DNA of 9,431 nucleotides, taken from the IMG/VR virus record IMGVR_UViG_2778261165_000011, positions 1 through 9,431 of that record; one strand, 5' to 3'. The stretch comes from a virus (taxonomy: Duplodnaviria; Heunggongvirae; Uroviricota; Caudoviricetes). A program made the position numbers and the translations under genes. Below the pieces are notes generated by a model. It worked only from the letters and a program-made list of their open reading frames with translations, was not told where the DNA came from and searched no databases. Below are positions 1 through 9,431 of this stretch, piece after piece. Each line of letters starts with the position of its first letter. The first letter of the stretch is position 1.

Positions 1-232
1 GCTTGCGGGCGTTCATGCTCAGAAACAAGGTTGGGACAAGCACTTCCAGGCTAACACAGTCAGAAATCGAAACGTACTCTCAACAGTTCGCTTAGGCATG
101 GAAGTTTTGCGGCATTCTGGCTACACAATAACAAGGGAAGACTCACTCGTGGCTGCAACCCTGCTTACTCAAAATCTATTCACACATGGTTACGTTTTGG
201 GGAAATTATGAGGGGATCTCTCAGCGCTAAAC

Positions 233-763
233 ATGAAAAAAGATTCGTATCCTTATTTGATTTGCATGACAGTTTCAGGCCTGATCTTTATTTTCCTTTT
301 CTTCTGGTGGCGGGCAGATATTTACAGGGTCACGTTTCTTAATCAGAGTATATCCCACTATTACATTCTGTTTAGCATGGGAATAGCTTTTCTGTTATCT
401 CTGTTTTGGGTTAAGAAGGGGATAGTAAAACAAAGCGGCTGGAAGAGTCTGTCAGCATACCTTAAGGTTTATGCAGGGATGTGCATATTTGCTGGATTTT
501 TTCTGATTATACCCCTTACAACACTAACTTATTTTTTGCCTGGAGAGACATCGTCTTATGTTGCACCGTATCGGTATACTTCCGGTAGTTCAAAAAGTTG
601 TTCTGGAGCTGAGGTGGATGACCCCGATCTACATGAGAATATTCGCATTTGCTATCCGTATGGCAATTATGAGTACGATAATATTATCTATGTTGAAAAG
701 AAAATTAATACATTAGGTGCGGTAGTAACATATGCACAGACCGCGCGTGATGATACTGAATGA
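233..763 (+). CDS. Hypothetical integral membrane protein: three predicted N-terminal TM helices plus a ~70-aa Cys-containing soluble tail
   Basis: 176-aa ORF in AT-rich DNA, on the opposite strand to the surrounding leftward operon. Hydrophobic stretches PYLICMTVSGLIFIFLFFWW, YYILFSMGIAFLLSLFWV and VYAGMCIFAGFFLIIPLTTLTYFL. Followed by a hairpin at 798-821. No strong Shine-Dalgarno before the ATG, which lowers confidence. No lambda counterpart recalled. Confidence 0.45.
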   Translation: MKKDSYPYLICMTVSGLIFIFLFFWWRADIYRVTFLNQSISHYYILFSMGIAFLLSLFWVKKGIVKQSGWKSLSAYLKVYAGMCIFAGFFLIIPLTTLTYFLPGETSSYVAPYRYTSGSSKSCSGAEVDDPDLHENIRICYPYGNYEYDNIIYVEKKINTLGAVVTYAQTARDDTE

Positions 764-797
764 GATAGTATATAGCGGGCAAGTTTTAGTTAATTTA

Positions 798-835
798 TCG
801 AGGTAATATAATTTACCTCGACTCGTTTATTCTGG
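798..835 (+). terminator. Candidate intrinsic terminator after the 233-763 gene
   Basis: 9-bp inverted repeat tcgaggtaa (798-806) / ttacctcga (813-821) with a 6-nt loop, followed by T-rich ctcgtttattctgg. Confidence 0.4.
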
Positions 836-973
836 TATTAATATTTCGCTTTACGATCGATTTTTATCTGATGATATCATGCGGTTTTCATATACTGACT
901 TACTGTCTTTTCTCCGTTAGCGATTTTCTCCTGCTCAGCGATGATTTTATCTTTGGCTTCTAGTTAATTTCGC

Positions 974-1195
974 TCACTTCGAACCTCTCTGTTTACTGAT
1001 AAGCTCCAGATCCTCCTGGCAACTTGCACAAGTCCGACAACCCTGAACGACCAGGCGTCTTCGTTCATCTATCGGATCGCCACACTCACAACAATGAGTG
1101 GCAGATATAGCCTGGTGGTTCAGGCGGCGCATTTTTATTGCTGTGTTGCGCTGTAATTCTTCAATTTCTGATGCTGAATCAATGATGTCTGCCAT
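974..1195 (-). CDS. TraR/DksA-family C4 zinc-finger protein (lambda orf73-like)
   Basis: 73-aa ORF with two CxxC pairs (CCECGDPIDERRR ... CRTCASC), the signature of TraR/DksA-type zinc fingers. Size and position (left of the orf61/63/60a cluster) match lambda orf73 from memory. Confidence 0.7.
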   Translation of the reverse strand: MADIIDSASEIEELQRNTAIKMRRLNHQAISATHCCECGDPIDERRRLVVQGCRTCASCQEDLELISKQRGSK

Positions 1196-1244
1196 CTTCC
1201 ATTAATCCCTGAATTGTTGGTTAATACGCTTGAGGGTGAATGCG

Positions 1245-1271
1245 AATAATAAAAAAGGAGCCTGTAGCTCC
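1245..1271 (-). terminator. Candidate intrinsic terminator between the 1294-1605 ORF and the TraR-like ORF
   Basis: Minus-strand sense: hairpin GGAGC-uacag-GCUCC (1271 down to 1257) followed directly by UUUUUUAUUAUU (1256 down to 1245). Confidence 0.5.
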
Positions 1272-1293
1272 CTGATGATTTTGCTTTTCATGT

Positions 1294-1605
1294 TCATCGT
1301 TCCTTAAAGACGCCGTTTAACATGCCGATTGCTAGGCTTAAATGAGTCGGTGTGAATCCCATCAGCGTTACCGTTTCGCGGTGCTTCTTCAGTACGCTAC
1401 GGCAAATGTCATCGACGTTTTTATCCGGAAACTGCTGTCTGGCTTTTTTGATTTCAGAATTAGCCTGACGGGCAATGCTGCGAAGGGCGTTTTCCTGCTG
1501 AGGTGTCACTGAACAAGTCCCATGTCGGCAAGCATAAGCACACAGAATATGAAGCCCGCTGCCAGAAAAATGCATTCCGTGGTTGTCATACCTGGTCTCT
1601 CTCAT
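1294..1605 (-). CDS. Hypothetical protein at the position of lambda orf61
   Basis: 103-aa ORF whose start overlaps the end of the orf63-like ORF by 20 nt, the arrangement recalled for lambda orf61/orf63. It is longer than the 61 aa expected from lambda. Confidence 0.45.
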   Translation of the reverse strand: MRETRYDNHGMHFSGSGLHILCAYACRHGTCSVTPQQENALRSIARQANSEIKKARQQFPDKNVDDICRSVLKKHRETVTLMGFTPTHLSLAIGMLNGVFKER

Positions 1606-1777
1606 CTGCTTCTGCTTTCGCCACCATCATTTCCAGCTTTTGTGAAAGGGATGCGGCTAACGTATGAAATTCTTCGTCTGTTTCTACTGGTATTGGCACA
1701 AACCTGACTCCAATTTGAGCGAGGCTATGTGCCATCTCGATACTCGTTCTTAACTCAACGGGAGATGCTTTGTGCAT
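1586..1777 (-). CDS. Small early protein, lambda orf63-like
   Basis: 63-aa ORF at the position and length expected for lambda orf63 relative to exo; overlaps both neighbours as in lambda. Confidence 0.5.
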   Translation of the reverse strand: MHKASPVELRTSIEMAHSLAQIGVRFVPIPVETDEEFHTLAASLSQKLEMMVAKAEADERDQV

Positions 1778-1938
1778 ACAGCTCCCCGTTTATTATTTAT
1801 CTCCTCAGCCAGCCGCTGTGCTTTCAGGGGATTTCGGATAACAGAAAGGCCGGGAAATACCCAGCCTCGCTTCGTAACGGAGTAGACGAAAGTGATCGTG
1901 CCTACGCGGATATTATCGTGAGGATGTTTCATCGCCAT
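1750..1938 (-). CDS. Small early protein, lambda orf60a-like
   Basis: 62-aa ORF immediately downstream of exo on the minus strand. Using the third codon (M at 1932) gives the 60-aa form with an ATGA-type overlap with the exo stop. Confidence 0.45.
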
Positions 1939-2609
1939 TGCTCCCCAAATACAAAACCAATTTCAGCCAGTGCCTCGTCCATTTTTTCGATGAACTCCGG
2001 CACCATCTCGTCAAAACTCGCTATATACTTTTCATTCCGCTCAATCACGACATAATGCAGGCCTTCACGCTTCATACGCGGGTCATAGTTGGCAAAGTAC
2101 CAGGCATCTTTTCGCGTCACCCACATGCTGTACTGCACCTGGGCCATGTAAGCCGACTTTATGGCCTCGAAACCACCGAGCCGGAATTTCATGAAATCCC
2201 GGGAGGTAAACGGGCATTTCAGCTCAAGGCCATTGCCGTCACTGCATAAACCATCGGGAGAGCAGGCGGTGCGCATACTTTCGTCGCGATAGATGATCGG
2301 GGATTCAATAACATTTACGCCGGAAGTGAACTCAAACAGGGTTCTGGCGTCGTTCTCGTACTGTTTTCCCCAGGCCAGCGCTTTAGCGTTAACTTCCGGA
2401 GCCACACCGGTGCAAACCTCAGCCAGCAGGGTGTGGAAGTAGGACATTTTCATGTCAGGCCACTTCTTTCCTGATCGGGGCTTTGCTATCACGTTGTGAA
2501 CTTCTGAAGCGGTGATGACGCCGAGCCGTAATTTGTGCCATGCATCATCCCCCTGTTCGACAGCTCTCACGTCGATCCCGGTACGCTGCAGGATAATGTC
2601 CGGTGTCAT
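1929..2609 (-). CDS. exo: Lambda exonuclease (Red alpha), 5'-3' dsDNA exonuclease
   Basis: 226-aa ORF, near-identical over its full length to recalled lambda Exo ([65 protein letters not shown]... FVFGEQWR). Start overlaps the bet stop. Confidence 0.95.
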
Positions 2610-3391
2610 GCTGCCACCTTCTGCTCAGTGGCTTTCTGTTTCAGGAATCCAAGAGCTTTCACTGCTTCGGCCTGTGTCAGTTCTGACGATGCGCGAATGT
2701 CGCGGCGAAATATCTGGGAACAGAGCGGCAATAAGTCGTCATCCCATGTTTTATCCAGGGCGATCAGCAGAGTGTTAATCTCCTGCATGGTTTCATCGTT
2801 AACCGGAGTGATGTCGCGTTCCGGCTGACGTTCTGCAGTGTATGCAGTATTTTCGACAATGCGCTCGGCTTCATCCTTGTCATAGATACCAGCAAATCCG
2901 AAGGCCAGACGGGCACACTGAATCATGGCTTTATGCCGTAACATCCGTTTGGGATGCGACTGCCACGGTCCGGTGATTTCTCTGCCTTCGCGGGTTTTGA
3001 ATGGTTCGCGGCGGCATTCATCCATCCACTCGGTAACGCAGATCGGATGATTACGGTCCTTGCGGTAAATCCGGCATGTACAGGATTCATTGTCCTGCTC
3101 AAAGTCCATGCCATCAAACTGCTGGTTTTCATTGATGATGCGGGACCAGCCATCAACGCCCACCACCGGAACGATGCCATTCTGCTTATCAGGAAAGGCG
3201 TAAATTTCTTTCGTCCACGGATTAAGGCCGTACTGGTTGGCAACGATCAGTAATGCGATGAACTGCGCATCGCTGGCATCACCTTTAAATGCCGTCTGGC
3301 GAAGAGTGGTGATCAGTTCCTGTGGGTCGACAGAATCCATGCCGACACGTTCAGCCAGCTTCCCAGCCAGCGTTGCGAGTGCTGTACTCAT
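2606..3391 (-). CDS. bet: Red beta single-strand annealing protein
   Basis: 261-aa ORF matching recalled lambda Bet ([86 protein letters not shown]...). Confidence 0.95.
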
Positions 3392-3396
3392 CCGTT

Positions 3397-3693
3397 TTAT
3401 ACCTCTGAATCAATATCAACCTGGTGGTGAGCAATGGTTTCAACCATGTACCGGATGTGTTCTGCCATGCGCTCCTGAAACTCAACATCGTCATCAAACG
3501 CACGGGTAATGGCTTTTTTGCTGGCCCCGTGGCGTTGCAAATGATCGATGCATAGCGATTCAAACAGGTGCTGGGGCAGGCCTTTTTCCATGTCGTCTGC
3601 CAGTTCTGCCTCTTTCTCTTCACGGGCGATCTGCTGGTAGTGACGCGCCCAGCTCTGAGCCTCAAGACGATCCTGAATGTAATAAGCGTTCAT
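3397..3693 (-). CDS. gam: Gam, RecBCD inhibitor (98-aa GamS form)
   Basis: 98-aa ORF matching recalled lambda GamS ([21 protein letters not shown]...[10 protein letters not shown]). The longer GamL frame is not intact here (see findings). Confidence 0.9.
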
Positions 3694-3768
3694 GGCTGAA
3701 CTCCTGAAAATGGCTGTGAAAATATCGCCCGCGAAATGCCAGGCTGATTAGGAAAACAGGAAAGGGGG

Positions 3769-3912
3769 TTAGTGAATGCTTTTGCTTGATCTCAGTTTCT
3801 GTATTAATATCCATTTTTTATAAGCGTCGACGGCCTCACGAAACATCTTTTCATCGCCAATAAAAGTGGCGATAGTGAATTTAGTCTGGATAGCCATAAT
3901 TGTTTGATCCAT
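3769..3912 (-). CDS. kil: Kil, host cell-division inhibitor
   Basis: 47-aa ORF from the ATG at 3912 ([47 protein letters not shown]), matching recalled lambda Kil. The 89-aa ORF in the supplied track is an upstream in-frame extension through cIII. Confidence 0.8.
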
Positions 3913-4045
3913 TTTTCGGGACTCCTGGCTGATTAAGTATGTCGATAAGGCGTTTCCATCCGTCACGTAATTTACGGGGGATTCGTTCAAGTAAAGATTC
4001 GGAAGGGCAGCCAGCAACAGGCCACCCTGCAATGGCATATTGCAT
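3881..4045 (-). CDS. cIII: cIII, inhibitor of FtsH-mediated cII degradation
   Basis: Hand translation of the minus strand from the ATG at 4045 gives MQYAIAGWPVAGCPSESLLERIPRKLRDG..., ending ...YGYPD* at 3881; 54 aa, matching recalled lambda cIII. Below the size cut-off of the supplied ORF track. Confidence 0.8.
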   Translation of the reverse strand: MQYAIAGWPVAGCPSESLLERIPRKLRDGWKRLIDILNQPGVPKNGSNNYGYPD

Positions 4046-4117
4046 GGTGTGCTCCTTATTTATACATAACGAAAAACGCCTCGAGTGAAGCGTAATTGGT
4101 ATGCGGTAACGCCGCGC

Positions 4118-4486
4118 TCAGGCGGCTTTGATAGTCATATCATCTGGATCAAATATTCCTGATGTATCGATATCGGTAATTCTTATTCCTTCGCTACCAT
4201 CCATTGGAGGCCATCCTTCCTGACCATTTCCATCATTCCAGTCGAACTCACACACAACACCATATGCATTTAAGTCGCTTGAAATTGCTATAAGCAGAGC
4301 ATGTTGCGCCAGCATGATTAATACAGCATTTAATACAGAGCCGTGTTTATTGAGTCGGTATTCAGAGTCTGACCAGAAATTATTAATCTGGTGAAGTTTT
4401 TCCTCTGTCATTACGTCATGGTCGATTTCAATTTCTATTGATGCTTTCCAGTCGTAATTAATGATGTATTTTTTGATGTTTGACAT
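4118..4486 (-). CDS. ea10: Ea10-like early protein
   Basis: 122-aa ORF at exactly the position and length of lambda ea10 relative to cIII/kil/gam/bet/exo. GAGGA Shine-Dalgarno upstream. Confidence 0.7.
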   Translation of the reverse strand: MSNIKKYIINYDWKASIEIEIDHDVMTEEKLHQINNFWSDSEYRLNKHGSVLNAVLIMLAQHALLIAISSDLNAYGVVCEFDWNDGNGQEGWPPMDGSEGIRITDIDTSGIFDPDDMTIKAA

Positions 4487-4503
4487 CTATTCATATCCTC
4501 ACA

Positions 4504-4532
4504 GATAAAAAATCGCCCTCACACTGGAGGGC
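4504..4532 (-). terminator. Intrinsic terminator upstream of ea10 (tL2-like)
   Basis: Minus-strand sense: stem GCCCUC-cagugu-GAGGGC (4532 down to 4515) followed by GAUUUUUUAU (4514 down to 4505). Position corresponds to the lambda tL2 region. Confidence 0.5.
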
Positions 4533-4668
4533 AAAGAAGATTTCCAATAATCAGAACAAGTCGGCTCCTGTTTAGTTACGAGCGACATTGCTCCGTGTAT
4601 TCACTCGTTGGAATGAATACACAGTGCAGTGTTTATTCTGTTATTTATGCCAAAAATAAAGGCCACTA

Positions 4669-4766
4669 TCAGGCAGCTTTGTTGTTCTGTTTACCAAGTT
4701 CTCTGACAATCATTGCCGTCGTTCGTATTGCCCACACCATTGATTCTTATCAATAGTCGCAGTCAT
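4669..4766 (-). pseudogene. ral: ral (restriction alleviation) remnant with internal frameshifting deletion
   Basis: From the ATG at 4766 the frame reads MTATIDKNQWCGQ then YERRQ*. A different frame reads (M)VWAIRTTAMIVRELGKQNNKAA* ending at 4669. These match the N- and C-termini of recalled lambda Ral (66 aa); ATG-to-stop is only 98 nt. Confidence 0.6.
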
Positions 4767-4836
4767 ACGGATAGTCCTGGTATTGTTCCATCACATCCTG
4801 AGGATGCTCTTCGAACTCTTCAAATTCTTCTTCCAT
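4750..4836 (-). CDS. 28-aa acidic peptide (lambda orf28-like)
   Basis: ATG at 4836 preceded by GAGGTGA Shine-Dalgarno; encodes MEEEFEEFEEHPQDVMEQYQDYPYDCDY*. Its 3' end overlaps the ral ATG, the same arrangement as lambda orf28/ral. Confidence 0.4.
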   Translation of the reverse strand: MEEEFEEFEEHPQDVMEQYQDYPYDCDY

Positions 4837-4894
4837 ATCTCACCTCAAATAAGTGGTTTGCTGCCTAATTTCATTTTCTGGCGACCAACACAAG

Positions 4895-5167
4895 TCATCT
4901 TGCTGTCAGCTGTTTGGATTTCCTGTAGCCTGCCGCGTAAATGGCTACATTTGGAAGACAAGTTGAGCCTTCATATTTTCTGGTCAACGTTGTCAGTGTT
5001 ATTACTTCTGCTCTCATTACTGGTTTGCGTTTGCATTGTAAGACCACTCGTGAAGGGGTTGGCCTGTGTAGTTTGTCAGAGCTGATCGCCTCCTGACTTT
5101 GCAGGTTTGCACGACGAGCTCTACGGCGAGAAGCTGCGGTGCCTTTAAATTCTGTTTTTCTGGACAT
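4895..5167 (-). CDS. N: N-like transcription antiterminator (non-lambda type)
   Basis: 90 aa from the internal ATG at 5167, preceded by GGAGG at ~6-nt spacing. N-terminal arginine-rich motif MSRKTEFKGTAASRRRARRANLQ. First gene downstream of the predicted PL and nutL. The supplied 114-aa ORF is an N-terminal over-extension. Confidence 0.65.
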   Translation of the reverse strand: MSRKTEFKGTAASRRRARRANLQSQEAISSDKLHRPTPSRVVLQCKRKPVMRAEVITLTTLTRKYEGSTCLPNVAIYAAGYRKSKQLTAR

Positions 5168-5265
5168 AGATTCCTCCCGAATAAACTTTGGCGATGCAAT
5201 CTCGAAGCTCCTCCTGAGCCGGTTGCTTCGGCATTGCATCCCACAGCTTATGTGGTTGGGTGGTC

Positions 5266-5311
5266 TGGCTTTTCAGCCACGTAGTCGAGTGTTCGACGTT
5301 GTTTAAAGAGC
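5266..5311 (-). promoter_or_regulatory. nutL candidate (boxA-like plus boxB-like hairpin)
   Basis: Minus-strand sense: GGCUCUUUAAA (boxA-like, 5311-5301), then hairpin GUCGA-acac-UCGAC, then UGGC-UGAAAA-GCCA (5279-5266). The last element parallels the hairpin in nutR. Confidence 0.5.
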
Positions 5312-5349
5312 CTGCCAGTCTGTTCCATTTGGCTTCCAGCGTCCTGCTG

Positions 5350-5386
5350 ATGATTAAATAGTACGATATGTACTTTATCTGGTCAA
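5350..5386 (-). promoter_or_regulatory. PL candidate promoter
   Basis: Minus-strand TTGACC (-35, 5386-5381), 17-nt spacer, TACTAT (-10, 5363-5358); about 40 nt upstream of nutL. Confidence 0.5.
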
Positions 5387-5570
5387 TACGATTTGTTCTA
5401 TTGAGGGGTGGTTTTTTACAACGCTTTGTATTTAATAGTGTTGTTTTTTAGCGTGGGTGTATTGCCTCGGCGATGTAGGGAGAGATCAGAATTGCGTTGT
5501 TTAGTGAGTTGTATCTATTAATTTTAAAATAAATACAATTGGTTATGTGTTTTTTTGGGGGCGTTAGGCA

Positions 5571-5595
5571 AAGAAAACCCGGCGCGGAAGCCGGG
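5571..5595 (-). terminator. Intrinsic terminator ending the cI-side leftward operon
   Basis: Stem cccggc (5578-5583) / gccggg (5590-5595) with loop gcggaa. On the minus strand the hairpin is followed by UUUUCUUU; it lies 5 nt after the stop of the 177-aa ORF. A T-run on the plus side (5606-5611) suggests weak bidirectional activity. Confidence 0.6.
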
Positions 5596-5600
5596 TTGTC

Positions 5601-6134
5601 TCATTTTTTAGTTTGCTTTGGATTCGGTTTGTCTCTTCTTCCAATTATAAACACGCTAGTTAAAGCAACTAACTCAGCACCAAGAAGCCCGGTAGCCCAG
5701 CCATAAGCCTCGTGCTGAATCATCTTGTAAGCAATTCCTGCGAAAACAAAGACAGAAGTCATCGCAAAGATCTGTCCGAGTCGATCTCGCCAAATTGCTC
5801 CCCTCTGTCCTGCTTTGTAATACTCGTGTCTGTGTTTTTGCTCAGCCTTAGCCATGTCCATTATTTCGCGAGCGAATCCTGGAGATATTCTTTCGTACTT
5901 AGCTAATTCGTCAGCGTCTGGGAGTGGCCCTGATCTAGTGTGAGTCACCTGCATCATGATGCCAGCTAGATCTGGCCTGTCCATGAGGCGCTCAAGAACT
6001 TGAGGGTTCTTTGCGACCTCATTTATAAGCAGTTCGGTTTTACCGTCTTGAACTCGCCCTAACGGAGTTGGTTGGTTAACAAGATTTCTCGGGGCGGCGG
6101 TTTGAAGCTTTCTTTGGGATTTTTTTCTGCTCAT
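5601..6134 (-). CDS. Hypothetical membrane protein with two C-terminal TM helices, at the position of lambda rex
   Basis: 177-aa ORF: basic N-terminus (MSRKKSQRKLQTAAPR), charged central region (ELAKYERISPGFAREIMDMAKAEQKHRHEYYKAGQ), then IFAMTSVFVFAGIAYKMI and WATGLLGAELVALTSVFIIG. No similarity to recalled RexA or RexB. Weak Shine-Dalgarno; possibly translationally coupled. Confidence 0.55.
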   Translation of the reverse strand: MSRKKSQRKLQTAAPRNLVNQPTPLGRVQDGKTELLINEVAKNPQVLERLMDRPDLAGIMMQVTHTRSGPLPDADELAKYERISPGFAREIMDMAKAEQKHRHEYYKAGQRGAIWRDRLGQIFAMTSVFVFAGIAYKMIQHEAYGWATGLLGAELVALTSVFIIGRRDKPNPKQTKK

Positions 6135-6297
6135 TATCAGTTACAGCGTCTCTAACGTAACTACCTACCTTAACCCAATCTGAGTTGATAAGGTCGATGT
6201 CTGTAGCATTTGAATGATACTCGCTGTAGCTACCTGCTGGGCAAAGGTCAAGGATAGAGCCCATAGCGCTGAAAAAGTGCTTTGCAGATTTTTTCAT
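6076..6297 (-). CDS. Hypothetical 73-aa soluble protein, first gene of the cassette downstream of cI
   Basis: ATG at 6297 preceded by AGGA about 8 nt upstream; MKKSAKHFFSAMGSILDLCPAGSYSEYHSNATDIDLINSDWVKVGSYVRDAVTDNEQKKIPKKASNRRPEKSC. Its 3' end overlaps the 177-aa ORF start by 59 nt in another frame. Confidence 0.4.
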   Translation of the reverse strand: MKKSAKHFFSAMGSILDLCPAGSYSEYHSNATDIDLINSDWVKVGSYVRDAVTDNEQKKIPKKASNRRPEKSC

Positions 6298-6485
6298 GTG
6301 GGGTGTCCTATATGTTGTTTACTCTAATTTGAGTAATTGAAGTTTACGCAAAACCTAGCTTTCAGCAAGCAATACAGCACAAAAAAATCATGTAAATTTG
6401 CGTCTATTTTTATCTAACGGAAAAATGCTCAACAACTTTAGAGAAAAAATAGCAATACCAAATCAAACCAATTGCTGCTTCGCCT

Positions 6486-7145
6486 CTACCCAAACGTCTC
6501 TTCAGGCCACTGACTAGCGATAACTTTCCCCACAACGGAACAACTCTCATTGCATGGGATCATTGGGTATTGTGGGTTTAGTGGCTGTAGAAACACCTGA
6601 CCGCTATCCCTGATCAGTTTCTTGAAGGTAAACTCATCACCACCAAGTCTGGCTATGCAGAAATCGCCGGGCTCAACAGCTTGCTCTGGGTCAACCAGAA
6701 TTAACATCCCGTCAGGAAAACTAGGTTTGGAACCTGTTGGTGCGGTCATTGAGTTACCTTCAACCTCAAGCCAGAATGCAGAGTCACTGGCTTTTTTGGT
6801 TGTGCTTACCAATCTCTCCGCATCGCCTTTGGTAAAGGTTCTGAGTTCTGGAGAGAACATCCCAGCCTGAACATGAGAAAAAACAGGGTACTCATATTGT
6901 TTTTTAACTGGGGCCGATGAGTATTCGCCAACAGGTGAAAATGTCCCGTCGTGGTTGAATGATATGTTATCAATACCAAGGTATTTAAACACCACACCAA
7001 TATCACTAAGAGATGGATGACGAGATCCGCGCAACCAGTGTCCAATTCCACCCTGCGTCATACCTAGCTCTTCGGCTAACTTCTCTTGAGTTATGCCGAG
7101 CTCTTTCATTCTGGATCTAGCCAGTTCATACCATTTCATTTTCAT
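6486..7145 (-). CDS. cI: cI-family prophage repressor: non-lambda HTH N-terminal domain fused to a lambda-type S24 autocleavage C-terminal domain
   Basis: C-terminal ~135 aa ([29 protein letters not shown]...[12 protein letters not shown]) nearly identical to recalled lambda cI. N-terminus ([40 protein letters not shown]...) is a different HTH. Start placed at ATG 7145 (or 7139); the 256-aa track ORF over-extends into the operator region. Confidence 0.9.
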
Positions 7146-7256
7146 GTCCTTATTATTACGCTCTGTACTGGAACCATCCATGCACAATGTGTATTTTTTG
7201 CTTGTGTTTAATGAGTACATATTGTATTTTTTATTTGTGGTTACTATGGAGGGCAT
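7146..7256. promoter_or_regulatory. OR region with divergent PRM/PR promoters and candidate operators
   Basis: 111-bp gap between divergent cI and cro. Contains two ~20-bp direct repeats, aatgtgtattttttgcttgtg (~7186-7206) and tattgtattttttatttgtgg (~7220-7240), plus TACTAT and a GGAGGG Shine-Dalgarno just before the cro ATG. Exact operator boundaries not resolved. Confidence 0.5.
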
Positions 7257-7472
7257 ATGAGCAACCTACGAAAATATCGAGAGTCACTGAATATCTCTCA
7301 AACAACACTTGCTAAGGCAGTTGGATGCACACAGGGAGCTATCGGACATTGGGAATCTGGTCGTCGCTTCCCAGACCTTAAAACATGCCGTGCTCTTGTT
7401 GCGTGTCTAAACAAGTTAGGCGCAAAAGTAAGTCTTGATGATGTGTTCCCGCCGGAGCACAAAGCTGCTTAA
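7257..7472 (+). CDS. cro: Cro-like HTH repressor
   Basis: 71-aa ORF divergent from cI with GGAGGG Shine-Dalgarno; [28 protein letters not shown]. Recognition-helix motif TQG.IGHW is shared with the cI N-terminal domain. Confidence 0.8.
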
Positions 7473-7482
7473 TAAGCGGAGC

Positions 7483-7528
7483 CGCTCTTTGTAATAACGG
7501 ACATTCGTCCTACGTCGCTGAAAAGCGA
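7483..7528 (+). promoter_or_regulatory. nutR candidate (boxA plus boxB-like hairpin)
   Basis: CGCTCTTTG (7483-7491, boxA consensus), then hairpin GGAC-attc-GTCC, then TCGC-TGAAAA-GCGA (7515-7528). Located between cro and cII as in lambda. Confidence 0.5.
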
Positions 7529-7613
7529 GTCCCAAGATATCTGACCAACTAAGGCCATATGCGTTTCCACGCATACCTTTCAACTAACTATTCACTATTG
7601 GAAATCTTAAGAA

Positions 7614-7910
7614 ATGGAACGAACAAGTTACAGCAAACTATCACAGCGTGACGTTGATCGCGCAGAAACAGATTTACTCATCAACCTATCAACGCTTACC
7701 CAGCGCGGTCTGGCAAAGATGATTGGCTGTCATGAATCGAAGATAAGCAGAACGGACTGGAGATTTATTGCTTCGGTCTTGTGTGCTTTCGGAATGGCAT
7801 CAGACATCAGTCCGATTAGCAGGGCTTTTAAGTATGCGCTTGCTGAAATCACAAAGAAAAAATCCCCGGCCGCCACCGAGGATTTTAAGCAAATTGATAT
7901 GCAATTCTGA
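7614..7910 (+). CDS. cII: cII transcriptional activator
   Basis: 98-aa ORF. C-terminal part (...ITKKKSPAATEDFKQIDMQF) resembles recalled lambda cII (...TNKKRPAATERSEQIQMEF). Positioned between cro and O, overlapped by the oop terminator. Confidence 0.8.
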   Translation: MERTSYSKLSQRDVDRAETDLLINLSTLTQRGLAKMIGCHESKISRTDWRFIASVLCAFGMASDISPISRAFKYALAEITKKKSPAATEDFKQIDMQF

Positions 7911-7932
7911 GGGAATTACTGGATCAATCTAC
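7857..7932 (-). ncRNA. oop: oop antisense RNA
   Basis: Minus-strand sense begins GUAGAUUGAUCCAGUAAUUCCCUCAGAA, close to recalled lambda oop 5' end GUUGAUAGAUCCAGUAAUGACCUCAGAA. Ends in hairpin CCUCGG-uggcgg-CCGGGG followed by AUUUUUU, overlapping the cII 3' end. Confidence 0.55.
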
Positions 7933-7942
7933 AGGGGGCATT

Positions 7943-8838
7943 ATGACAAATACAGCCAAAATACTCAACTTCTGCAGAGGTAACTTTGCCAAACAGGAGC
8001 GTAATGTGGCAGATCTCGATGATGGTTACGCCAGACTATCAAATATGCTGCTTGAGGCTTATTCAGGCGCAGATCTGACCAAGCGACAGTTTAAAGTGCT
8101 GCTTGCCATTCTGCGTAAAACCTATGGGTGGAATAAACCAATGGACAGAATCACCGATTCTCAACTTAGCGAGATTACAAAGTTACCTGTCAAACGGTGC
8201 AATGAAGCCAAGTTAGAACTCGTCAGAATGAATATTATCAAGCAGCAAGGCGGCATGTTTGGACCAAATAAAAACATCTCAGAATGGTGTATCCCTCAAA
8301 ACGAGGGAAAATCCCCTAAAACGAGGGATAAAACATCCCTCAAATTGGGGGATTGCTATCCCTCAAAACAGGGGGACACAAAAGACACTATTACAAAAGA
8401 AAAAAGAAAAGATTATTCGTCAGAGAATTCTGGCGAATCCTCTGACCAGCCAGAAAACGACCTTTCTGCGGTGAAACCGGATGCTGCAATTCAGAGCGGC
8501 AGCAAGTGGGGGACAGCAGAAGACCTGACCGCCGCAGAGTGGATGTTTGACATGGTGAAGACTATCGCACCATCAGCCAGAAAACCGAATTTTGCTGGGT
8601 GGGCTAACGATATCCGCCTGATGCGTGAACGTGACGGACGTAACCACCGCGATATGTGTGTGCTGTTCCGCTGGGCCTGCCAGGACAACTTCTGGTCCGG
8701 TAATGTGCTGAGCCCGGCCAAACTCCGCGACAAGTGGACCCAGCTCGAAATCAACCGTAACAAGCAACAGGCAGTCGTGACAGCCAGCAAACCAAAACTC
8801 GACCTGACAAACACAGACTGGATTTACGGGGTGGATTT

Positions 8839-8842
<4 letters not shown>
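7943..8842 (+). CDS. O: Replication initiator O
   Basis: 299-aa ORF near-identical to recalled lambda O (MTNTAKILNF...NTDWIYGVDL); contains the iteron origin internally. Confidence 0.95.
8291..8420. repeat. ori-lambda: four ~18-bp iterons plus adjacent AT-rich region
   Basis: tccctcaaaacgaggga (8292-8308), tcccctaaaacgaggga (8312-8328), tccctcaaattggggga (8337-8353), tccctcaaaacaggggga (8359-8376), then acaaaagacactattacaaaagaaaaaagaaaagattatt. Confidence 0.85.
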
Positions 8843-9425
<583 letters not shown>

Positions 9426-9431
9426 TAGCTT

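Follow-up and report, generated by a model that had tools for sequence, protein, structure and literature searches.

Is an AT-rich open reading frame (ORF) that lies against the early operon of a lambdoid prophage, and that has a poor translation start, a genuine gene, and if so, what might it do? The question is raised by ORF 233-763, on the plus strand of a stretch of 9,431 nucleotides (nt) from a Caudoviricetes virus (IMG/VR record IMGVR_UViG_2778261165_000011, positions 1 to 9,431; hereafter the window), for which a preliminary description had suggested an independently transcribed accessory gene for a membrane protein, possibly a superinfection-exclusion or other lysogenic-conversion factor. 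Our analyses show that this ORF is genuine and intact, that it is well conserved and encodes a small inner-membrane protein, and that it is the cargo of a single-gene mobile prophage cassette (a moron) of ~0.78 kb, which in this window has been interrupted by the insertion sequence (IS) IS10 just upstream of the gene. Databases already list the sequence, as a hypothetical or putative membrane protein, and its kind is that of a prophage moron for an envelope protein.

The gene, its start codon and its predicted product

No nucleotide difference was found between ORF 233-763 and the copies in phage 434 and Escherichia coli SLK172 (protein identity of 100%), and only one residue separates the 176-amino acid (aa) protein from the copies in O157:H7 Sakai (ECs_0804, prophage Sp3) and phage mEp332. 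The coding sequence was detected in 911 of 5426 complete E. coli genomes (17%), where all copies are chromosomal, nearly all are single, and all are annotated as hypothetical. The ratio of nonsynonymous to synonymous substitution rates (dN/dS) is ~0.05-0.16, and comparison with Salmonella homologues gave nonsynonymous and synonymous differences per site (pN and pS) of 0.18-0.25 and ~0.7, respectively, and a dN/dS of 0.08-0.16, the synonymous sites being saturated; these values indicate that the gene is under strong purifying selection. Homologues were identified in Salmonella, Klebsiella, Enterobacter, Cedecea, Phytobacter, Citrobacter, Erwinia, Proteus, Providencia, and Pseudomonas, and even those with identities as low as 17-45% retain the frame, length, and start. 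The 176-aa ATG-initiated ORF recognized in the preliminary description is thus backed by homologues, start codon, and selection.

Database versions of 188, 200, 207, and 223 aa use more upstream starts (12, 24, or 47 codons earlier). However, all divergent homologues (17-78% identity, 166-189 aa) open at the equivalent of M1, with the motif MKK-SY, and the 176-aa form therefore appears to be the full-length protein; the alignment identifies the ATG at 233 as the conserved start and the longer database versions as over-extended. It is very improbable that IS10 has cut a longer gene (of the 188-, 200-, or 223-aa type) and that the ORF is what remains of its 3' part, as the upstream starts given in the records of phage 434, mEp332, and numerous E. 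coli strains, within whose N-terminal extensions IS10 does fall, are confined to near-identical E. coli DNA and have no conservation at the protein level, the upstream DNA is conserved as a non-coding footprint out of frame, and the homologues that share the M1 start come from several genera and contexts.

Three hydrophobic segments (residues ~8-26, 42-60, and 77-102) were observed in Kyte-Doolittle analysis with 19-residue windows, and they agree with the helices in an AlphaFold2 model built from 18 homologues (predicted local distance difference test score (pLDDT) of 87.1, predicted template-modelling score (pTM) of 0.74; helices 5-29, 38-61, and 70-101, followed by five beta strands), which confirms the three N-terminal transmembrane (TM) helices proposed earlier. 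Lys and Arg residues are concentrated in the N-terminus (MKK) and in loop 2 (residues 61-78; family mean of 4.4 Lys plus Arg, net charge of +3.6); the positive-inside rule accordingly predicts a cytoplasmic location for both, and a periplasmic one for loop 1 (residues 27-41) and the C-terminal domain. The only beta element outside the C-terminal domain in the model is a short strand in loop 1 (residues 34-36), which may associate with this domain. Modelled in isolation, the C-terminal domain forms a five-stranded small barrel (pLDDT 86.5) and superposes on small five-stranded beta-barrels (DUF1093/YxeF-like 3npp, cold-shock, and OB-fold proteins) over 57-66 aligned residues. The Cys-containing tail of the preliminary description corresponds to this domain (residues 103-176): Cys123 (599-601) and Cys140 (650-652), located in the motif SCSGA-V-DP-L...I-IC-P, are invariant in 24 of 24 family members, among which Trp26, Gly125, and Gly162 are almost invariant. 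Such an invariant Cys pair would fit a periplasmic disulfide.

The family is small. An exhaustive profile search against 1.84 billion representatives retrieved 61 proteins at E <=0.001, about 30 of which are full length. Structure prediction and profile searches, both proposed in the preliminary description, yielded a confident model and a single match, namely phrog_1416 in PHROGs v4 (unknown function; E = 1.6e-50, 170 bits), which aligns residues 89-176 with positions 1-88 of a 90-position profile and spans only TM helix 3 and the C-terminal domain. This short profile probably results from 5'-shortened annotations in many phage records, such as a 112-aa form starting with GTG. The latter form (P0213 and P0215), found in E. 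coli P2-like prophages, starts at the equivalent of codon 65 and comprises only TM helix 3 and the periplasmic domain; it was observed on at least 1000 contigs, the 176-aa form of this variant being recorded on ~100. No match to the 176-aa protein was detected in Pfam, NCBIfam, or PDB sequences, and a PDB sequence-profile search gave only chance matches (E >0.6). The whole-protein model returned nothing meaningful in PDB, and Foldseek against BFVD nothing at E <=0.001. Two candidates were rejected: Pfam DUF6057 (E = 0.048, 13 bits versus a cut-off of 29.8), a chance alignment of hydrophobic segments, and a 3074-aa adhesin-like protein from the profile search (P0123, E = 2.5e-5), considered spurious at an hhalign probability of 1%.

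A mobile cassette shared by lambdoid and P2-like phages

The composition of the gene (GC content of 38.8%, 37% at third codon positions) differs from that of exo and bet (52% and 56-61%, respectively), as the earlier remark on its AT-richness had it. In phages 434, mEp332, and 2B8 and in SLK172 and O157 strains, it is flanked by an orf73-like gene on one side and by xis, with one or two small ORFs, on the other, and is convergent with the leftward operon, at a place where lambda has ea22 and ea8.5. Homologues with 55-78% identity in Salmonella, Klebsiella, and E. coli P2-like prophages are flanked by the genes for portal (gpQ) and replication (gpA) functions, and occur either alone or beside varied other cargo. 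In P2, old and tin are found at this gpQ-gpA locus, which has been shown to be a reservoir of anti-phage systems (Rousset et al. 2022, PMC9122126).

The cassette is present or absent between otherwise colinear prophages, with precise boundaries. One cassette-bearing E. coli P2-like locus (L033) has 712 bp where that of strain H19 (L035) has 258 bp, and its cassette region aligns with phage 434 (L001 3872-4646, 434 coordinates 27195-27969) at 75.8% identity, the aligned 434 segment extending from 137 nt before the ATG to 107 nt past the stop codon. Together with the deviant composition and the two locations (lambdoid xis-exo and P2 gpQ-gpA), this presence/absence pattern bears out the earlier suggestion of an acquired accessory gene. 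The insertion in L033 cuts off an ea22-like gene. Several further observations concern the same neighborhood. E. coli P2-like prophages have an ead/Ea22-like gene in the gpQ-gpA hotspot (L034 3664-4034 and L035 2990-3580), whose 3' end is substituted by the membrane-gene cassette; in lambdoid phages the cassette likewise replaces ea22, and the window regains homology to lambda at the 5' end of ea22 (position 962). Sequence of ea22 common to both phage types may have been the recombination handle by which the cassette moved between them.

Three potential signals were observed around the gene. First, an alignment of the upstream regions of lambdoid, P2-like, and chromosomal copies showed a TG-n-TAA(A/T)TT motif of the extended -10 type, 37-41 nt 5' of the ATG, which is conserved in five divergent copies. 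Second, the previously reported hairpin past the stop codon is present within the conserved cassette and scored as terminator-like: its stem consists of 9 bp, of which 4 are GC pairs, its loop has 6 nt, and CTCGTTTATT comes next; the fold of positions 780-850, which contain it, has a z-score of -2.5 versus shuffled sequences. The promoter-like motif is conserved, yet a consensus scan calls no promoter there, and the T-tail of the hairpin is weak. Third, a repeat, TTGTG(T/C)-N5/6-(T/C)GTGCAG, is common to lambdoid and P2-like copies ~80-100 nt 5' of the ATG (L001 3905-3930, with equivalents in L033 and L005) and is labelled as a CII-binding consensus in the 434 record. We set CII control aside, considering that TTGY-N6-TTGY should turn up several times in a phage genome by chance and that a similar repeat is retained in P2-like copies. 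No lambda-type CII is known from P2-like phages, and conservation of the repeat in them suggests a site for another regulator, or mere shared cassette ancestry.

The native unit therefore looks like a classic moron composed of promoter, gene, and terminator. As in lambda bor and lom and HK97 gp15, it is self-contained and deviant in composition, has a promoter-like element and a terminator-like hairpin, sits between operon genes in an orientation suited to expression under operon repression, and has a predicted envelope product. It differs from these morons in that no sequence or fold relationship with them was detected and that the cassette is also common to P2-like phages.

The gene is also present outside functional prophages. 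A very widespread decayed remnant in E. coli, located between a LysR-family gene and a MASE4-GGDEF gene (L021-L029, gene 4001-4531), retains an xis-proximal ORF of the 434 type, part of an IS (DDE_Tnp_1), and the intact membrane-protein gene, to whose downstream side a 5' segment of exo is directly fused. In this remnant all 7 of 7 differences in the gene are synonymous, versus 8 of 192 in the adjacent non-coding flank. The homologues of Cedecea neteri and Enterobacter mori are chromosomal, with phage genes absent within 6 kb; that of E. mori likewise lies between LysR and GGDEF genes, which may be a coincidence. Retention of the gene in such places argues for a benefit to the cell.

The IS10 junction and the copy in this window

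The copy in the window differs from its relatives upstream. Positions 1-224 share 96.7% identity with EF120459.1 (phage CL707) in its IS10 transposase region and are 100% identical to an annotated ISVsa5 end in E. coli strain 2e through base 224, beyond which the sequences diverge. The C-terminus of the transposase (...LLTQNLFTHGYVLGKL*) is in frame 2 and ends at a TGA codon (209-211), the terminal repeat ...GAGGGGATCTCTCAG finishes at 224, and homology to phages 434, 2B8, and mEp332 and to SLK172 begins at 225. These matches identify positions 1-224 as the end of an IS10-type element of the IS4 family rather than phage DNA. The distance between the IS10 end and the ATG is 8 bp. IS10 has the target consensus NGCTNAGCN and a 9-bp target duplication (PMC4574204), and the flank at 225-233, a putative target-site copy, agrees with the consensus at 5 of 6 specified positions; the window includes only one flank of IS10, and the second duplication copy falls outside it. 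A search of genome contigs gave no match to the exact IS10-gene junction. A second site with a perfect consensus match, empty here, is IS10-occupied in other E. coli strains. Compared with CPT_434_36 of phage 434 ("putative membrane protein", UMO75300.1), ECs_0804, and the genes of 2B8 and mEp332, the present gene has the same position, convergent orientation, and downstream hairpin, whereas in those records the annotated starts are 12-24 codons too far upstream and the native upstream region is present, in place of which IS10 here ends at -8.

Native copies read ...TTTATGGACGCTAAACATG ahead of the gene, and their sole Shine-Dalgarno (SD)-like element is GGA at -11 to -9, of which the GG at -11/-10 is conserved among divergent homologues. 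Since IS10 has replaced this GG, the ribosome-binding site noted earlier as a caveat is indeed weak in this copy, but its weakness is not a sign of a doubtful gene. In this window, the gene is no longer joined to the first ~129 bp of the cassette, in which the promoter-like motif lies, and all native upstream elements, which lie to the left of 225, are thus displaced or lost. Independent transcription, as proposed earlier, is therefore plausible for the native cassette, with its motif and hairpin, but not for this copy, in which IS10 intervenes. The gene was also described as opposite to the surrounding operon, which is true of the right side, where all genes are on the minus strand; on the left side, the overlooked IS10 is on the same strand.

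Transcription of this copy would come only from read-through of IS10 (the transposase transcript or the outward promoters pIII and OUTIIp, which were reported in IS10 nt 1000-1230 (PMC11481808, PMC4574204), a region that corresponds to positions up to ~125 of the window), and would meet a poor initiation region. The transposase stop codon shares a frame with the membrane-protein ORF, 21 nt 5' of its ATG; ribosomes ending transposase translation on such read-through could, in principle, re-initiate at 233. With the SD-like element gone and only IS10 read-through available, this copy is probably weakly expressed or silent.

It is possible, though less likely than not, that the feature in this window is a functional relic, which IS10 has silenced so that nothing is made from it, regardless of the role of the family in other settings. 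Only 8 bp separate IS10 from the ATG, the conserved GG has been replaced and the promoter-like motif and the upstream repeat have been removed, and an IS10 in the neighboring hotspot of a related strain goes with complete loss of the gene. Furthermore, lambdoid homology ends at ~9303, within replication gene P (ORF 8839-9327, 162 aa); truncated P is annotated as "missing C-terminus" in relatives, and in related strains an IS3-family element follows the junction (window 9304-9431). With IS10 on the left and this junction on the right, the window is a prophage segment with IS elements on both sides. However, functional phage 434 has an identical coding sequence, so any silencing would be recent, outward-reading promoters have been reported near this end of IS10, and the in-frame transposase stop is close enough that read-through and some re-initiation are possible.

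The other features of the window are typical of the region. The convergent right neighbor is the gene with which the leftward exo-xis region ends, next to the cassette, and all genes from there rightward to the immunity region are on the minus strand (orf73-like, DUF1382/orf63, orf60a, exo, bet, etc.). Lambda_thermo was the sole Rfam family above its gathering score in the window. The 177-aa ORF is located roughly at the position of lambda rexAB and is itself a candidate accessory membrane protein. The coordinates of all these features are listed in Table 1.

Table 1. Features of the window in order of position (from IS10 to the immunity region).
Feature	Position	Strand	Details
IS10/ISVsa5 end (inside end; IS10 nt ~1106-1329)	1-224	+	224 bp; transposase C-terminus and terminal repeat
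Putative IS10 target-site copy CGCTAAACA	225-233	+	5 of 6 specified positions of the consensus
Retained part of the cassette	225-870	+	Native cassette equivalent to window positions 96-870
Membrane-protein coding sequence, 176 aa	233-763 (stop included)	+	ATG start; equals phage 434 CPT_434_36 from the conserved start; ECs_0804 of O157 Sakai Sp3
TM helix 1 (residues ~8-26), predicted	254-310	+	Hydropathy, AlphaFold2, Lys/Arg distribution
TM helix 2 (residues ~42-60), predicted	356-412	+	Hydropathy, AlphaFold2, Lys/Arg distribution
TM helix 3 (residues ~79-102), predicted	467-538	+	Hydropathy, AlphaFold2, Lys/Arg distribution
C-terminal domain (residues 103-176, ~75 aa), predicted periplasmic	539-760	+	Five-stranded small beta-barrel (model)
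Terminator-like hairpin	798-821	+	35 nt past the stop codon; within the conserved cassette
Second IS10 target site TGCTCAGCG	932-940	+	Perfect consensus match; empty here
TraR/DksA-type zinc-finger protein, 73 aa (lambda orf73 equivalent)	974-1195	-	Pfam zf-dskA_traR, E = 1.6e-8
Lambda_thermo (cIII thermoregulator element)	4000-4058	-	Rfam, 88.5 bits, E = 4e-21
177-aa ORF (DUF2335 in relatives; hydrophobic C-terminal part)	5601-6134	-	Between the N-side region and the repressor gene

Possible functions of the family

In the native setting, the cassette promoter would drive the gene in the lysogen while pL is repressed, antisense to the pL operon; in lytic growth, antitermination would carry the pL transcript across the gene in the antisense direction. 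The three-helix anchor of the product would hold a periplasmic, probably disulfide-bonded domain at the inner membrane, and this domain would act on the cell envelope and protect the lysogen. Our best single guess, to which we give a probability of roughly 0.4 and whose basis is location and architecture only, is superinfection exclusion at the DNA-entry step. By analogy only, P22 SieA, T4 Imm and Sp, and P1 Sim are likewise small phage proteins of the inner membrane (as predicted for the present one) with a periplasm-exposed part, encoded by non-essential cargo genes. Homologues occupy a recognized defense hotspot, gpQ-gpA (as defined in PMC9122126), which provides context only; they share exactly this locus with the cargo of P2 (old, tin, and the systems of Rousset et al. 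2022), although the present gene encodes a single small membrane protein without enzymatic domains and lies outside the PADLOC-DB v2 models.

Searches of PHROGs and PADLOC revealed no similarity to known exclusion or defense proteins; unlike SieA, Imm, Sp, and Sim, the product matches no PHROG annotated as superinfection exclusion and no Pfam family, and PADLOC-DB v2.0.0 gave no family at E up to 1 with either the 176-aa or the 200-aa form. The gene is not among the tested systems in the searched text of PMC9122126, and no function is given for it in the 434 genome announcement (PMC9119081) or in the phage records. A more specific proposal, tentative and rather doubtful as a whole, is that the family represents an unrecognized single-gene exclusion determinant, whose disulfide-bonded periplasmic barrel would block genome entry, whose 0.78-kb cassette would shuttle between lambdoid xis-exo and P2 gpQ-gpA, and which would be kept by the host after prophage decay.

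Nearly as likely as exclusion, though by itself still on the unlikely side, is a role that has nothing to do with phages, the product being an envelope or host-fitness/lysogenic-conversion factor, for example an orphan immunity protein whose target is a contact-dependent toxin or a bacteriocin that acts in the membrane or periplasm, or a protein that modulates a host component of the inner membrane or periplasm (such as a transporter, sensor kinase, or protease). Such a role may account for the chromosomal copies of C. neteri and E. mori that have no phage neighbors and for the intact gene, with synonymous changes only, in the highly decayed E. coli remnant, and it agrees with the absence of a PADLOC match. 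Moreover, a small multi-TM architecture with a periplasmic domain is also found in immunity proteins against pore-forming colicins. However, no Pfam match to colicin or toxin immunity families was observed, no toxin gene or remnant adjoins the gene in any inspected context, and both phage locations are best known for anti-phage cargo.

It appears improbable that the product is an abortive-infection effector or a toxic, holin-like membrane protein that kills or arrests the infected cell. Class I holins do have three TM helices, the layout predicted here, and TM proteins of defense hotspots are often suicide effectors (PMC9122126). On the other hand, the cassette contains a single gene with no sensor partner and with variable neighbors, the gene lies outside lysis cassettes, and no holin or colicin-immunity match was detected in Pfam at E up to 1. 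That 17% of E. coli genomes, and decayed remnants too, stably carry it as an intact single copy argues against intrinsic toxicity, and the conserved part is a predicted folded periplasmic domain with a Cys pair, with no charged cytoplasmic tail.

As prophage cargo the gene is ordinary, as is the insertion of IS10, and phage biologists would be surprised by neither. The odd translation start in the window is an insertion scar and not a property of the gene, and the start codon supported by the divergent homologues corrects many hundreds of annotations. The classical phage 434, prophage Sp3 of O157:H7, and roughly a sixth of complete E. coli genomes carry the gene, but it has no entry in a curated family or defense catalogue. 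Considering its compact cassette in the hotspots of two unrelated lineages of temperate phages, the strong purifying selection, and its intact survival in decayed remnants, it is a cheap and well-defined candidate for a new prophage envelope or exclusion function.

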